From SAR86 cluster bacterium (GTDB taxonomy: Bacteria; Pseudomonadota; Gammaproteobacteria; Magnimaribacterales; TMED112), in the NCBI GenBank assembly GCA_003331605.1, contig QOPD01000003.1, positions 11,716 to 75,715 of the forward strand: a DNA stretch of 64,000 bases, in the 5' to 3' direction. Below the pieces are notes generated by a model. The model saw nothing but the letters and a program-made list of their open reading frames with translations. It had not been told where the DNA came from and did not search any database. Made by a program: the position numbers and the translations under genes. Positions 15,568 to 26,893 of this stretch are shown in pieces. Each line of letters starts with the position of its first letter. Positions within the stretch are counted from its first letter, which is position 1.

Positions 15568-16002
15568 ATGAAAAAATATCTCATATTGGCTTTATTTCTT
15601 TTTTCTTGCGAAAGGCCTGAATTTTTATTTACCGATGGGGAAGGGGCAAAATTTGCAGATTATGAGGATCAAATAATTTTTTTGAATATCTGGGCTGATT
15701 GGTGTCCACCCTGCATCATAGAGTTCCCATATTTAAATGACATCAACGAAGATCCAAATGTAAGCGTAATTGGGTTTCACTTTGATCAATTTGACATCTT
15801 ACCTAACGAGGAAGTGAATAGGCTGATGAATAAATTTAACGTTGAGTTCAAGAATTTATCTACCGATCCAAGAAATTTATGGAGCTTAGATCTTCCAGAC
15901 AGTGTACCAACAACGTACATCATTAAAAATGGAAAAATACTTGACGCCATAACTTACCCACTAACTCCAGAAAAGCTTAAAGAGCTTGTTGCAACTAATT
16001 GA
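15568..16002 (+). CDS. TlpA-family thiol-disulfide oxidoreductase lipoprotein
   Basis: Lipobox LFSC, WADWCPPC, VPTT. Confidence 0.85.
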   Translation: MKKYLILALFLFSCERPEFLFTDGEGAKFADYEDQIIFLNIWADWCPPCIIEFPYLNDINEDPNVSVIGFHFDQFDILPNEEVNRLMNKFNVEFKNLSTDPRNLWSLDLPDSVPTTYIIKNGKILDAITYPLTPEKLKELVATN

Positions 16003-17350
16003 CCTTTGACTTAATTAAGCCCGTTTTAAGTTTGGTAGAAATTTCATCACCTTTCTTAACTGCTTTAGAATCTCTGACAATATTGCCTGTTTCGTCATAA
16101 GTGATTGAATAACCTCTTTCCAATACATTCTCAGGATTTAAATTATTTAATTGGTCTTTAAAAGAAGCAATTAAGCCTTGTTTGGCATTAAGCTTATTTT
16201 TTAACACCCTTGATAGATCTTTTACACCTTTAGCAATATCCATTCTTAATTGTGTAACTCTTTTGCTAGGATTGTTTGAATTTAAAGCAGCTGCATAAAA
16301 ATGAGACTTATCTTTATTTAGCTGCAGCAGTTTTCTCATAGCAAATGACATCTGTTCTGACTTTTGATCGAGTCTTTGATATTGGTCATGTATTTTTTGT
16401 TGTGGCGATCTTAATAGCTTTTGATTTAGCAAAACCTTTTCCTTGTAGTGTGTGAGCCTTAATCTAAATATCTTGATTAAATTCGCTGAAGCTCCTTCAA
16501 AATAATTTAATAATTGAGAGGCACCGTTACTTACAATTTCTGCGGCTGCAGTAGGTGTTGCTGCCCTGATATTTGAAACAAAATCCATTAAAGTGAAATC
16601 TGTCTCATGGCCTACACCACTAACAATTGGGATTTTTATTCCACTGACATATCGACAAAGATCTTCATTATTAAAACTCCATAAATCCTCAATTGAGCCG
16701 CCACCTCTACAAACAATTATGGCGTCGATCTTTTCTTGGCCTTGATATTGTTCAATCATTTCTAAAGATTTTTTTATTGAATTAGCAGAACCTTCGCCTT
16801 GCACGACCGCTGGAAAAATAGTTGATTGAATATGTGGAGCTCTACGTTGCAGTGTTGCAATCACATCTTTTATAGCTGCTCCGTGTGGGGAGGTTATTAT
16901 AGCAACTTTATTAATTAATGCAGGTAATTCATTTTCTGTCTTGGCATTAAAGAGCCCCTCACTATTAAATTTATTTTTTAGTAGCTCAAACTTTCGTAAT
17001 AACTCGCCGTAGCCAGCAAGCTCCATTTTATTAACTATCATTTGATAGCGACCTGTTTTATGCCAAATAGATAACTTGCCTTGCATAATGACTTGGTCAC
17101 CCTCATTTGGTTTAAACCCAAGGTTGATATTTTGCAATCTAAACATCGAACAATTCAAAACAGATTCTGTATCTTTAACGGAGAAGTACCAATGACCAGA
17201 TGAACCATATTCTTTAAAGTTTGATATTTCTCCAACCACCCATAAGGGGGGGAATGCTTCATTAATGAAATCATTAACGGTTTTGTTTAGTTCCGTAACA
17301 CTTAAAATTTCTCTTTCATCAAAATTGGTAGTGCTAGAGTAGTCTTCCAT
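15995..17350 (-). CDS. xseA: Exodeoxyribonuclease VII large subunit
   Basis: GEISN, SGHWYF, RGGGSIEDLW, GHETD. Confidence 0.96.
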   Translation of the reverse strand: MEDYSSTTNFDEREILSVTELNKTVNDFINEAFPPLWVVGEISNFKEYGSSGHWYFSVKDTESVLNCSMFRLQNINLGFKPNEGDQVIMQGKLSIWHKTGRYQMIVNKMELAGYGELLRKFELLKNKFNSEGLFNAKTENELPALINKVAIITSPHGAAIKDVIATLQRRAPHIQSTIFPAVVQGEGSANSIKKSLEMIEQYQGQEKIDAIIVCRGGGSIEDLWSFNNEDLCRYVSGIKIPIVSGVGHETDFTLMDFVSNIRAATPTAAAEIVSNGASQLLNYFEGASANLIKIFRLRLTHYKEKVLLNQKLLRSPQQKIHDQYQRLDQKSEQMSFAMRKLLQLNKDKSHFYAAALNSNNPSKRVTQLRMDIAKGVKDLSRVLKNKLNAKQGLIASFKDQLNNLNPENVLERGYSITYDETGNIVRDSKAVKKGDEISTKLKTGLIKSKVN

Positions 17351-17378
17351 AACAATTTATTATATTCTATTGTCCACT

Positions 17379-17455
17379 GCGAGTTTAGCTCAGTTGGTTA
17401 GAGCACCTGCCTTACAAGCAGGGGGTCGTAGGTTCGAATCCTACAACTCGCACCA
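17379..17455 (+). tRNA. tRNA-Val(TAC)
   Basis: Cloverleaf, acceptor GCGAGTT/AACTCGC, anticodon TAC, encoded CCA. Confidence 0.97.
17441..17451 (+). repeat. Direct repeat copy 1 (tRNA-Val 3' end) CTACAACTCGC
   Basis: Identical to 18784-18794. Confidence 0.75.
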
Positions 17456-17463
17456 ATTATTTT

Positions 17464-17904
17464 ATGACCCAAAAAGAAGTTGAACAATATATTGACTTTC
17501 ACCGTGAAAATGGTGGAACAGGAAAAATATTTCAGTTTACATACAAGAATTACGAACCTGGCACGCTTACTCTAGAGGGTAATTTTACAGAGGCATGTTT
17601 AAATCCAAATGGAACTGTACAAGGCGGCATGATGACTTCTATGCTGGATGACATAACTTCATTATTATTGATCATGGAAGCAAAAGGGAAGTTGTACCCT
17701 GCGTCCACAGACCTGCACACACTCCATCATAGATCTCTAAACCAAGGGAAGATTATCGCAAAGGGGACGATCATGAAAAAAGGTAAAACTATAGCAACAG
17801 TTAAAGGCGAAATTTTTGATCAAGATGACAAGCTCATTACAACTCTTATGCATACAGCATATCTTTTTGAACTAGATCGATCGTTATACGAAAAAGCAGA
17901 ATAA
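17464..17904 (+). CDS. PaaI-family hotdog thioesterase
   Basis: NPNGTVQGG...LDD motif. Confidence 0.85.
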   Translation: MTQKEVEQYIDFHRENGGTGKIFQFTYKNYEPGTLTLEGNFTEACLNPNGTVQGGMMTSMLDDITSLLLIMEAKGKLYPASTDLHTLHHRSLNQGKIIAKGTIMKKGKTIATVKGEIFDQDDKLITTLMHTAYLFELDRSLYEKAE

Positions 17905-17929
17905 AAAAAAGCCCGCTTGAGCGGGCTTT
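17903..17929 (-). terminator. Intrinsic terminator of the rhodopsin gene (possibly bidirectional)
   Basis: AAAGCCCGC-ttga-GCGGGCTTT with an A tract on its left. Confidence 0.85.
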
Positions 17930-17949
17930 AAGTTAGATTTAAAAAAAGC

Positions 17950-18660
17950 CTAGCCTTTTTTAACTCCGGAATCCATCATAGCTGCATACCAGATAACAAG
18001 TCCGAATAAGAATTTGTTAACTAAGTCAGCAAGGTTATAGATTGTGTTTAGAGCATTAGCATCAACACCACCACCTAAATAACCCAGGAAGTAACCGATT
18101 GGGTATATTGACCAACCAATTGTTACGATCCATTTAATTCCGTTGAAAGCAAAGCTTAGTGCTTCGTTTCCAGCTGCGTCTTTAATTTTTGCAGCTTCAC
18201 CTGCAAAGACATAGTAGATAATGTATATCCAAGCAGCCATTGATACAACAAACATTAATGTTGGATCTGCGAAACCTGCTTCACCTAAAAACCCTGTAAT
18301 CAGCATAACTAATGAAGCTGCTAATAAGTTCCAGAAAACTCCAAGACTTACTGCTACTACAGCTGAAAGGATTAAGTAAAACTCTACAATCTGCATAGGA
18401 ACAGTAACCAACCAGTCAATATATCTATAGACTGTAGGTGATTCACCTGTTGCTACCCAAACATCTCTCATGTATAAGTAATGCCAAAAAGCGACAAAAC
18501 ACACAAGAGCTGCAACGGTTAAAGATGTCTGCCAAGAAGCTTTAACTGTGCTTCTTTCCATGAAAAAGAACAAAGCACCTGCAGCCATTATGGCAGTTGC
18601 AATCCAAAACGATACACCGACATAGTCGACAACACCGTTTGAAACTAAAGAATAATCCAT
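17950..18660 (-). CDS. Proteorhodopsin, DTE proton pump, Gln105 (blue-tuned type)
   Basis: WHYLYM (His75), RYIDWLVTVPMQIVEF (D97/T101/Q105/E108), DLVNK retinal-binding Lys. Confidence 0.96.
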   Translation of the reverse strand: MDYSLVSNGVVDYVGVSFWIATAIMAAGALFFFMERSTVKASWQTSLTVAALVCFVAFWHYLYMRDVWVATGESPTVYRYIDWLVTVPMQIVEFYLILSAVVAVSLGVFWNLLAASLVMLITGFLGEAGFADPTLMFVVSMAAWIYIIYYVFAGEAAKIKDAAGNEALSFAFNGIKWIVTIGWSIYPIGYFLGYLGGGVDANALNTIYNLADLVNKFLFGLVIWYAAMMDSGVKKG

Positions 18661-18783
18661 TAGATTTTCCCCCTTATATTAAGTAAATTTACTCTACGGC
18701 AATAATTGTACAGACCAAAATGAGAAATTCAACTTTCTTTACAGTATAAAAAAGTTGTAAATATTGTTATTTTGTACCAGAAT

Positions 18784-18794
18784 CTACAACTCGC
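18784..18794 (+). repeat. Direct repeat copy 2 CTACAACTCGC (att-like scar)
   Basis: Exact copy of the tRNA-Val 3' segment; abuts tRNA-Asp. Confidence 0.7.
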
Positions 18795-18872
18795 GGTCCG
18801 GTAGTTCAGTTTGGTTAGAATGCCTGCCTGTCACGCAGGAGGTCGAGGGTTCGAGTCCCTTCCGGATCGCCA
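18795..18872 (+). tRNA. tRNA-Asp(GTC)
   Basis: Acceptor GGTCCGG/CCGGATC, anticodon GTC, CCA. Confidence 0.97.
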
Positions 18873-18880
18873 TTAAGATT

Positions 18881-19309
18881 ATGATTGCTGAGATAACACT
18901 CCAAACACTTTTAGCTGCAATTGTTGGAGCTATTTGGGCAACGCCCTTGGTCGTAAGTCCAGCTGCCAGAAACAGCCTGGATAAAGAAGCTCTGAAATTC
19001 TTTCTGAAATCTTATTTTTTTAGATTTAATATTTTTCTGATCCTAATGCTGGCTTTATATTTGGGCGTGGTTTATTTCTTTATGTTGCCTGAGTATGAGC
19101 TTATCTGGAGCGACACTAAAAATCTTACCATCCTAATTATTCTTGGACTCAATGTTTTAAATATGTTTATAGGACTTATTATCGATAATACTAAGATTGA
19201 TAGCTCTAGTAATTTTTTTAAATTCATACATGCTTTTAGTGTGGCTATTTTGGCTTCTACCTCATTTGTTGCTCTTTATTTTCTTATCGAAAAGTTTTTG
19301 ACGCTTTGA
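18881..19309 (+). CDS. Hypothetical four-TM membrane protein
   Basis: True start is the ATG at 18881; the track ORF extends back through the tRNA. Confidence 0.7.
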
Positions 19310-26739: not shown

Positions 26740-26816
26740 CGGGGCATAGCGCAGTCTGGTAGCGCACCTGGTTTGGGACCAGGTGGTCGCAGGTTCAAAT
26801 CCTGCTGCCCCGACCA
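26740..26816 (+). tRNA. tRNA-Pro(TGG)
   Basis: Acceptor CGGGGCA/TGCCCCG, anticodon TGG, CCA. Confidence 0.97.
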
Positions 26817-26893
26817 GCGCCAGTAGCTCAGCTGGATAGAGCAGTAGCCTTCTAAGCTATTGGTCGGGGGTTCGAATCCTCCCTGGCGCGCCA
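26817..26893 (+). tRNA. tRNA-Arg(TCT)
   Basis: Acceptor GCGCCAG/CTGGCGC, anticodon TCT, CCA. Confidence 0.97.

Follow-up and report, generated by a model that had tools for sequence, protein, structure and literature searches.

A variable gene slot between tRNA-Val and tRNA-Asp holds proteorhodopsin in a SAR86 genus and adjoins a short repeat of the tRNA-Val 3′ end

SAR86 bacteria belong to the most abundant surface-ocean heterotrophs, and proteorhodopsin was first found in this group. In the SAR86 genome considered here (939,359 bases in total), a proteorhodopsin gene lies between two tRNA genes, and a short segment of the first tRNA recurs immediately before the second. A preliminary description of this locus read the repeat as the scar of a tRNA-targeted integration event that had brought phototrophy to the lineage, with the integrase since lost and the scar perhaps preserved as part of a promoter. 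This raises the question of whether the repeat indeed records the arrival of proteorhodopsin, or whether it owes its presence to other causes. All coordinates given below are positions within the window, which is the whole 64,000-nt stretch of DNA that was analysed.

The left anchor of the locus is tRNA-Val(TAC) (17379-17455, plus strand; ARAGORN), which is preceded by the conserved left-flank gene xseA coding for the large subunit of exonuclease VII (15995-17350, minus strand; Pfam Exonuc_VII_L, E 1.2e-93). Starting 8 nt past the CCA of tRNA-Val is a gene for a hotdog-fold thioesterase of 146 aa (17464-17904, plus strand; Pfam 4HBT, E 2.1e-9). This gene converges with one for a blue-type proteorhodopsin of 236 aa (17950-18660, minus strand; Pfam Bac_rhodopsin, E 6.3e-45), and the two are separated by a GC-rich, terminator-like hairpin (17908-17929), for which the terminator scan reports nine pairs, including six GC pairs, and a subsequent T-run on the minus strand. 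The right anchor is tRNA-Asp(GTC) (18795-18872, plus strand; ARAGORN), which is followed by a conserved right-flank gene for a DUF4149-like membrane protein (18881-19309, plus strand; BLASTP). In agreement with the preliminary description, the thioesterase and proteorhodopsin genes are the only ORFs between the two tRNAs.

The repeat is present as originally reported. An 11-mer, CTACAACTCGC, is found at 17441-17451 in the 3′ end of tRNA-Val and again at 18784-18794, flush with tRNA-Asp. If one indel is allowed, the match grows to 15 of 16 nt, with the first copy reading GAATCCTACAACTCGC (17436-17451, plus strand) and the second reading GAATCTACAACTCGC (18780-18794, plus strand; sequence match) and ending one base before tRNA-Asp. 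The first copy comprises the end of the T-loop, the 3′ strand of the T-stem and the 3′ strand of the acceptor stem, and its start falls within the T-loop, the crossover point of one class of tRNA-targeting integrases. This span from T-loop to acceptor end favours an att site. However, the repeat stops at acceptor position 72 and lacks both the discriminator base and CCA (together ACCA) and any downstream flank, which speaks against one. Likewise, its 11 exact nucleotides compare poorly with the approximately 40 nt of a typical att site, as given in the accessible part of a preprint (bioRxiv 10.1101/2020.12.28.424599).

The 11-mer is not a common sequence, as it occurs only twice in the entire genome and both times at this slot, and this uniqueness again favours integration. 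The count in the window is also two, even when up to one mismatch is permitted, compared with a mean of 0.32 in 100 shuffles, five of which contained at least two. In 1024 comparisons of the 30-nt upstream regions of the 32 tRNAs with every tRNA, it was the sole match of at least 9 nt, excepting the abutting tRNA-Pro/tRNA-Arg pair with the T-loop motif that it carries, and the runners-up were 8-mers (n=13). Local alignment of the 3′-terminal 40 nt of tRNA-Val with the 45 nt immediately upstream of tRNA-Asp, assessed with 2000 shuffles, yielded p<0.0005 for this genome. At the 14 sites compared in families f2, f3 and f4, p ranged from 0.18 to 0.95 for 13 and was 0.04 for one empty f4 site, and by this test the resemblance between leader and tRNA-Val is significant in this genus only.

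Copy 2 occupies a distinctive position. It consists of the last 4 nt of a −10-like hexamer plus the 11 nt leading up to tRNA-Asp, such that the 11-mer fills the space between this hexamer and the first base of the tRNA. The hexamer belongs to a pair of promoter-like blocks delineated by column conservation (18749-18783, plus strand), which are a −35-like AAAAAGTTGTA and a −10-like TTTGTACCAGAAT. Across the genus (37 distinct sequences), conservation is 0.9-1.0 in both blocks, 0.4-0.8 in the spacer and 0.5-0.99 per column in copy 2, and the proposal that the repeat overlaps a sequence conserved in the manner of a promoter or leader therefore holds. The specific promoter put forward, TTGTAA (18755-18760) and CAGAAT (18778-18783) with a 17-nt spacer, is located correctly, but by our own count it agrees with the consensus at just 8 of 12 positions, and it is absent from the promoter scan, whose threshold is 9. 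A promoter function for the conserved blocks is nonetheless what their conservation suggests.

Ancestral states add a further consideration. The 11-mer is ancestral in the genus, which is compatible with integration in a stem lineage, and the ancestral state of copy 2 is CAAAATCTACAACTCGC, with a repeat of 14 of 15 nt. The −10-like hexamer had the ancestral form CAAAAT, and thus the GAAT extension of the repeat, which had been counted as part of the scar, is partly a derived change. In family f3, comparison by eye shows a TTGCA-17-ATxATT layout before tRNA-Asp whether the site is empty or occupied, and from this comparison the promoters of the different families might be orthologous. The repeat of an att-flanked island should mark the junction of the insert with the pre-existing flank. 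Here, the repeat instead lies downstream of the conserved −35/−10-like blocks, in a layout that recurs at the empty f3 sites.

Across the SAR86 order, the tRNA-Val/tRNA-Asp interval is a variable gene-insertion slot. Empty sites, which together with sites holding other cargo had been expected among relatives, were found in other families only, namely in f3 (G043, 59 nt; G073, 81 nt) and in f4 (G059, 88 nt; G063, 85 nt). The flanks of the empty G043 site are syntenic with those described above, with xseA on the left and, after tRNA-Asp, a gene for a DUF4149 protein to which the DUF4149-like protein of the window is 29% identical (BLASTP, E 3e-8); xseA adjoins tRNA-Val in the metagenome contig L170 as well. 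In genera g14 and g21 of f3 (seven genomes in total), the sole occupant of the slot is proteorhodopsin, and genes for a PhoD phosphatase or PHP-domain proteins fill it in f4. Variation of the slot and the existence of empty sites are both points in favour of an integrative element, but such a repeat is missing from the occupied f3 and f4 sites and, in other families generally, from sites that contain proteorhodopsin and from empty ones alike.

Within the genus, the arrangement is uniform wherever it is assembled, with tRNA-Val, proteorhodopsin and tRNA-Asp occurring in this order at all 23 loci where ARAGORN detected both tRNAs. We examined 54 genome and metagenome stretches with the genus-type tRNA-Val end. 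The complete series from tRNA-Val through thioesterase and rhodopsin to tRNA-Asp is present in 33 of these, its start is seen before the contig ends in 13, and five terminate no more than 14 nt from tRNA-Val. Directly after tRNA-Val, two stretches have a TonB-receptor gene and one has unrelated genes. In the only TonB contig reaching far enough (G027), this gene heads a sugar-uptake cluster that extends up to the thioesterase gene and adds about 8 kb. The 9.8-kb variant encodes a TonB receptor, RraA, GH3, an SSF symporter, glucokinase, the thioesterase, DUF4345 and rhodopsin. No recombinase ORF or remnant was detected in any slot variant, even this largest one, and the two PF00589 proteins of the genome (299 and 289 aa) are encoded elsewhere, on C4 and C1. 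In addition, the base composition and GC content of the slot are not deviant, and the 22-nt tRNA-Val end is not matched exactly by any viral contig, all of which weighs against an integrative element.

No empty site was found in the genus, where 25 of the 29 other genomes have a rhodopsin match and the non-matching ones that were checked have no assembled locus. Genomes without a rhodopsin match were considered as candidate empty sites and rejected, given that the contigs of G007 and G025 end at tRNA-Val and that G014, G023 and G018 are also without xseA. No matches were obtained when metagenomes were scanned for a genus-type site devoid of genes (Val end, 0-30 nt, TTG, 30-60 nt, Asp start), a pattern that covered spacers of 33-93 nt containing TTG. 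Reads and contigs over the locus revealed neither transcript ends nor a deletion joint, and the contigs stop at the tRNA genes. An apparent joint of 17404 to 18826 with GATC in between was traced to a different tRNA gene from other organisms and is not a deletion.

The clearest evidence for turnover comes from the thioesterase gene. Its product had been called a PaaI thioesterase, of which the general assignment stands: it passes the generic hotdog thioesterase model TIGR00369 (48.6 bits versus a cut-off of 36.6) but fails the NCBIfam PaaI equivalog TIGR02286 (17.2 bits versus 118.9). PADLOC gave no match for three alleles of this protein. Between this genome (G000) and G010, the flanks and proteorhodopsin gene are 90-99% identical in DNA, compared with 55-64% for the thioesterase gene, whereas the latter is 83-93% identical between G000 and G001. 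At the protein level, identity to G010 and G001 is 56% and 90%, respectively, for the thioesterase versus 99% and 85% for proteorhodopsin. The identity breakpoints in the alignment fall exactly at the ACCA of tRNA-Val and at the thioesterase stop codon and shared terminator. Divergent cassettes thus occupy one syntenic position with sharp breakpoints and conserved flanks, as in a replacement flexible islet. The thioesterase gene behaves as a swappable cassette, and homologous replacement is the form of exchange that the data show.

Proteorhodopsin itself has a more ambiguous history. A light-driven proton pump is marked by Asp, Thr and Glu residues together with the retinal lysine. The protein has D82, T86, Q90, E93 and K216, which we take to be equivalent to D97, T101, position 105, E108 and K231 of green proteorhodopsin, and the glutamine at the tuning position assigns it to the blue type. 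D82, T86, E93 and K216 are conserved in all 57 aligned sequences, and the Bac_rhodopsin fold with carboxylate donor and acceptor and retinal lysine predicts a proton-pumping proteorhodopsin. RNA-library contigs from three runs span 17998-18692 with zero differences. The proteorhodopsins of the genus form one clade (support 100), a monophyly that, like the uniform arrangement, speaks against the scar reading. This clade is not placed beside the f3 rhodopsins of the same slot and joins those of f4 weakly (support 44). Such a placement would suit an integrative element, and it suggests that the stem lineage may have gained the gene or had it replaced. The rhodopsin tree also conflicts with the family tree, with f2 nested in f3. 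In g21, a genus of a sister family, the slot holds a Q-type (blue) proteorhodopsin in three genomes and an L-type (green) in two, drawn from two deep clades. The rhodopsin region of g21 shows a moderate drop in similarity relative to its flanks (0.53-0.77 versus about 0.75), which on its own is suggestive of rhodopsin exchange. A homolog search says nothing about donors, because only genus-like proteins (at least 79% identity) are present among the best 120 matches listed.

We favour, with moderate confidence, the explanation that this is an old slot whose contents are exchanged by homologous recombination, and that constraint on the promoter or leader of tRNA-Asp maintains the 11-mer, which does not record how phototrophy arrived. 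By this account, the tRNA-Val(UAC)/tRNA-Asp(GUC) interval would be a flexible gene slot that has persisted for a long time in the SAR86 order. In it, the genus (probably of the CHAB-I-7/TMED112 family) would have held a hotdog thioesterase and a blue-type proteorhodopsin since before its radiation. Turnover of the contents would require no site-specific integrase, with the conserved tRNA genes and the shared terminator presumably serving as anchors for recombination. Before tRNA-Asp, the 11-mer would be retained as part of the promoter or leader, and its identity to tRNA-Val would be old and, in all likelihood, either a coincidence or the result of limited local copying. Chance, local copying and, least likely, an att site are its candidate origins.

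It is also conceivable, yet in our judgement unlikely, that the tRNA-Val end was truly copied by a process needing no integrase. The source could be a tandem second tRNA-Val that once abutted tRNA-Asp, or a patch from 1.3 kb upstream introduced by templated repair or gene conversion, and either event would be unrelated to the arrival of proteorhodopsin. The statistically unusual match and its flush contact with tRNA-Asp would be accounted for, and spacerless tRNAs do exist in this genome, where tRNA-Pro ends at 26816 and tRNA-Arg begins at 26817. Moreover, copy 2 fits a tRNA-Val sequence specific to the genus, and a copy would therefore postdate that divergence. The tRNA-Val acceptor stem GCGAGTT/AACTCGC is unique to genus g1 in an alignment with four other genera from three families, in which mean column identity is 80%, and the exact 25-nt 3′ end matched only 11 stretches from marine Gammaproteobacteria MAGs; tRNA-Asp has a mean column identity of 93% among five genera of all four families. 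Against such copying, alignments reveal no similarity to tRNA-Val upstream of AAT in copy 2, and the missing ACCA is again a difficulty. The two copies also lack covariation, as genomes with CCTTC in tRNA-Val retain CTAC in the leader. Finally, the g21 leader CACAAGCGTTCGC matches most letters of the 11-mer by eye, although the tRNA-Val end of g21 is unrelated.

An integrative element that entered the tRNA-Val 3′ end in the stem lineage with the thioesterase and proteorhodopsin genes, leaving a 14-15-nt copy as a decayed attR that was co-opted for tRNA-Asp after loss of the integrase, is improbable given the missing ACCA, the position behind the −10-like hexamer and the other evidence above. 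We attach equally little credence to its more specific form, in which the copy would be the fossilised attR of an element resembling a tycheposon. This element would have delivered a blue proteorhodopsin, with the thioesterase, into the tRNA-Val gene of an ancestor of the most streamlined family in SAR86, and the scar would later have been domesticated as core promoter and leader of tRNA-Asp, a role that would explain why it survived the loss of the integrase and of the CCA end. Accordingly, the arrival of phototrophy by this route, as first proposed, is unlikely.

Williams is said to have classified the sublocations of att sites in tRNA genes in 2002. Tycheposons of Prochlorococcus are tRNA-targeted integrative elements with remnants in genomic islands, and partial tRNAs left there by degraded elements lend the integrative reading a precedent in another streamlined marine bacterium (bioRxiv 10.1101/2020.12.28.424599). 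As far as the accessible part of that preprint describes them, the Val/Asp slot resembles them in having cargo beside a tRNA gene, in belonging to a streamlined marine bacterium and in the partial tRNA 3′ copy beyond the cargo. It differs in having no integrase or fragment of one, and in that its copy is only 11-15 nt long, lacks the CCA end, lies inside the promoter region of the next gene and is absent from other occupied sites.

Another parallel is offered by replacement-type flexible genomic islands, which are reportedly exchanged through homologous recombination between conserved flanks in Alteromonas (PMC4898812) and in the streamlined Methylophilaceae (PMC10872708). Judging from the portions of these papers available, the shared features are a fixed syntenic position, divergent cassettes in very close genomes, sharp breakpoints and the absence of mobility genes. 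Unlike those islands, the Val/Asp slot is tiny (one to three genes in most genomes), has two tRNA borders, carries a phototrophy gene and can be traced in three of the four families of the order.

The tree conflict and the presence of blue and green types within one genus are in keeping with known proteorhodopsin transfer and spectral switching. Divergent proteorhodopsins of SAR86 subgroups were reportedly described by Sabehi in 2004. Unlike in known cases, exchange here is tied to one defined slot between two tRNA genes. Our literature search, which covered openly accessible texts including parts of SAR86-related papers, yielded no mention of this slot. Depending on the lineage, this small two-tRNA slot contains no gene at all or houses a blue or green proteorhodopsin, a phosphatase or a sugar-uptake cluster, which makes it a concrete locus for the study of niche-adaptive gene exchange in streamlined genomes without mobile elements.

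One observation on the 11-mer deserves separate mention. For the Val/Asp pair, such a match is improbable by chance, and it is flush with both the end of the acceptor stem and the start of tRNA-Asp. Since the 11-mer is ancestral in the genus, a real copying event may have taken place in the stem lineage.

The tRNA-Val(TAC) gene (17379-17455) and the tRNA-Asp(GTC) gene (18795-18872), both called by ARAGORN, enclose an interval with a repeat at its two edges. The repeat noticed earlier is confirmed by the sequence and the ARAGORN positions. The first copy, GAATCCTACAACTCGC, is read in the sequence at 17436-17451, and the second, GAATCTACAACTCGC, occupies 18780-18794, with its last base directly preceding tRNA-Asp. 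The exact core, an 11-mer, occurs twice in the window and twice in the entire 939-kb, 11-contig genome. When the 30 nt before each of the 32 tRNAs were compared with every tRNA (1024 comparisons), the 11-mer was the sole match of at least 9 nt apart from the abutting Pro/Arg pair, and the longest remaining matches were 8-mers. That pair, tRNA-Pro(TGG) and tRNA-Arg(TCT) (26740-26893), has zero spacer, with the joint at 26816/26817. A local-alignment shuffle test gives p<0.0005 for the likeness of the tRNA-Val end to the tRNA-Asp leader, a case that was picked from a very large scan.

Within the interval, a 146-aa hotdog-fold thioesterase (17464-17904) is followed by a GC-rich hairpin (17908-17929) and, on the opposite strand, a 236-aa proteorhodopsin (17950-18660). 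The preliminary description called the thioesterase PaaI, a name that is not upheld, as the protein scores below the PaaI equivalog cut-off and passes that of the generic hotdog domain alone. In the proteorhodopsin, the D/T/E residues and the lysine are retained and the tuning position carries Q, residues whose roles we assume for this protein. RNA-library contigs from three runs span the gene without differences. The GC content of the interval (0.37-0.40) is similar to the genome-wide value of 0.36. The tRNA-Val CCA and the thioesterase start codon are 8 nt apart (17455-17464), and 5 nt apart in the related genome G010. The 8-nt gap leaves no room for a promoter or ribosome-binding site, which suggests that the gene is co-transcribed with tRNA-Val and has a nearly leaderless mRNA once the tRNA is processed. 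One RNA-library contig (run X16, 17377-17489) crosses the tRNA-Val end, a weak hint of such co-transcription.

A rhodopsin match is present in 25 of the 29 other species genomes of the genus, and the order Val-rhodopsin-Asp holds in all 23 genus loci where both tRNAs were detected. The locus is not assembled in the four match-less genomes, nor in G025, which has only a broken rhodopsin fragment; the contig stops at tRNA-Val in G007 and G025, and the left-flanking gene xseA is missing as well in G014, G023 and G018. Among 54 genome and metagenome stretches carrying the genus-type 25-nt tRNA-Val end, 33 contain the full Val-thioesterase-rhodopsin-Asp series, 13 contain its start, and five stop no more than 14 nt past tRNA-Val. 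In two others (G027, L170), a terminator and then a TonB-receptor gene come straight after tRNA-Val. The stored L170 stretch stops within this gene, while G027, a single genus member, continues through RraA (RraA-like), GH3, sodium:solute symporter and glucokinase genes up to the thioesterase; this 8-kb sugar-uptake cluster (L174, G027:C30, 6334-14274) has no repeats at its far end. The remaining stretch, the 1663-nt metagenome contig L138, begins with the tRNA-Val 3' end and carries unrelated genes (an ORF of 269 aa, an MGMT-like ORF and a third ORF); it could come from another lineage or from a rearrangement, or be chimeric. Genus rhodopsins form a single clade with support of 100, and a deep clade of the genus has an extra DUF4345 gene between thioesterase and rhodopsin. 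Assembly breaks are frequent at tRNA-Val, as in G007, G025 and the five short stretches, and DNA-run contigs halt at both tRNAs, as expected if co-occurring strains diverge just past the tRNA.

The claim that the tRNAs bound a slot is correct and extends to the SAR86 order, where relatives have empty sites and other cargo. From genome sizes, numbers of genera and the tree published in PMC11582366, we infer that the four coded families are CHAB-I-7/TMED112 (f1), Magnimaribacteraceae (f2), 'Suzuki'/D2472 (f3) and RedeBAC7D11 (f4), with f1 and f3 as sisters and f2 and f4 as sisters. A tRNA-Val form common to f2 and f4 agrees with this name matching. The Val-Asp pair is found in f3 and f4 with varying content. 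Empty slots measure 59 nt (G043), 81 nt (G073), 88 nt (G059) and 85 nt (G063), and an empty f3 site shares the window's flanks, with xseA to the left of the slot and a DUF4149-type protein to its right. Rhodopsin is the sole occupant, oriented as in the window, in f3 genera g14 (G052, G058) and g21 (G072, G199, G108, G123, G129). Occupants in f4 are a PhoD phosphatase or a PHP-domain protein, and seven more f4 loci have a PhoD-like ORF before tRNA-Asp on stretches that end before any tRNA-Val could appear. In G033 (f2), rhodopsin lies straight after tRNA-Val, shares its strand and is separated from tRNA-Asp by 8 kb of housekeeping-type genes. The f4 genera g4, g7 and g9 place rhodopsin 0.2-1 kb from tRNA-Gly(GCC) (L092-L095, L099-L101); no tRNA was found near rhodopsin in g11, nor within 4 kb of it in the other f3 and f2 genera. 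With three of four f4 genera showing the tRNA-Gly context, rhodopsin adjoins tRNA genes in three contexts order-wide.

The clearest event of content change involves the thioesterase, a one-gene cassette swapped by homologous replacement between conserved anchors. Aligned with G010, the window's genome has 90-99% DNA identity across xseA, the tRNA genes, rhodopsin and the sequence downstream, and only over the thioesterase gene does the value fall to 55-64%. The left breakpoint coincides exactly with the tRNA-Val ACCA, and the right one with the stop codon/terminator. Compared with G001, the thioesterase gene is 83-93% identical. Protein identity to G010 and G001 is 56% and 90%, respectively, for the thioesterase, and 99% and 85% for the rhodopsin. 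Both thioesterase haplotypes are present in metagenomes (L142 versus L125, L163 and L136). In g21, the slot holds a Q-type rhodopsin in G072, G199 and G108 and an L-type in G123 and G129; the rhodopsin tree places the two types in separate deep clades, and rhodopsin identity is only moderately below flank identity. No recombinase gene or fragment was found in any slot variant. Two PF00589 proteins of about 290-300 aa are encoded elsewhere in the genome, and from their number and size we take them to be the Xer pair. The slot is an instance of the flexible genomic islets, a known kind of locus whose content is exchanged by homologous recombination. No description of it was found in the openly accessible papers searched.

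Comparison of 37 distinct genus sequences reveals two near-invariant, promoter-like blocks before tRNA-Asp, AAAAAGTTGTA and CATTTGTACCAAAAT. The 17 nt separating TTGTA(A/T) from CAAAAT are variable, and the 11-nt leader past CAAAAT shows intermediate conservation with its middle two positions free. The ancestral genus state reconstructed by Fitch parsimony on the rhodopsin tree is CAAAATCTACAACTCGC, and therefore the exact 11-mer is ancestral in the genus. It is kept in six of 33 complete stretches, has one position changed in nine and more in 18. In f3, an A-rich tract and then TTGCA-17-ATxATT precede tRNA-Asp in empty and rhodopsin-occupied sites alike, and therefore the f3 insert lies upstream of that promoter. 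Judged by eye, the window genus appears to have the same layout, with g21 closest: g21 has AAAAAGTTGCA, the leader CACAAGCGTTCGC and a tRNA-Asp with the T3/A70 pair of the window genus. This T3/A70 pair, an AAAAAGTTG(C/T)A block and much of the leader are common to g21 (L058/L084, G072) and the window (18749-18872), and the g21 tRNA-Val is unrelated in sequence to that of the window genus. Lateral exchange involving the slot's right-hand part may account for the likeness.

Our tentative reading, held at somewhat less than even confidence, is that the 11-mer is a chance match retained by constraint. A 12-mer from the tRNA-Val D-arm reappears in the 9.9-kb interval of G027 (L174), by coordinate arithmetic inside the rhodopsin ORF, and therefore matches that long can arise by chance. 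Three points favour a real copy of the tRNA-Val end: the 11-mer match is improbable for the pair formed by tRNA-Val and the tRNA-Asp leader, the repeat is flush on both sides, and it matches a genus-specific tRNA-Val distinct from that of all other families. We consider a local copy made without an integrase unlikely. The scar of an integrase that brought phototrophy here, as first proposed, is unsupported and decidedly improbable: no slot variant has a recombinase, the second copy ends at acceptor position 72 without ACCA, the repeat does not come close to the roughly 40 nt of a typical att site (bioRxiv 10.1101/2020.12.28.424599), the copies do not co-vary, leader likeness to tRNA-Val lacks significance at 13 of 14 f2, f3 and f4 sites (p 0.18-0.95; p 0.04 at one empty f4 site), and, if the promoter is orthologous, attR would be expected upstream of it and not past the -10 element.

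Fitch parsimony also indicates that 'GAAT' acquired its G later, by a change within the -10-like hexamer. Elsewhere in the genome (G000:C3:1110-1139, C10:58870-58898), the sequence ahead of tRNA-Thr(TGT) is TAGAAT plus 9 nt, and that ahead of tRNA-Val(GAC) is CGAATCCT. Hexamers ending in GAAT before tRNA genes resemble the T-loop motif, which explains part of the 'GAAT' extension of the repeat in the preliminary description.
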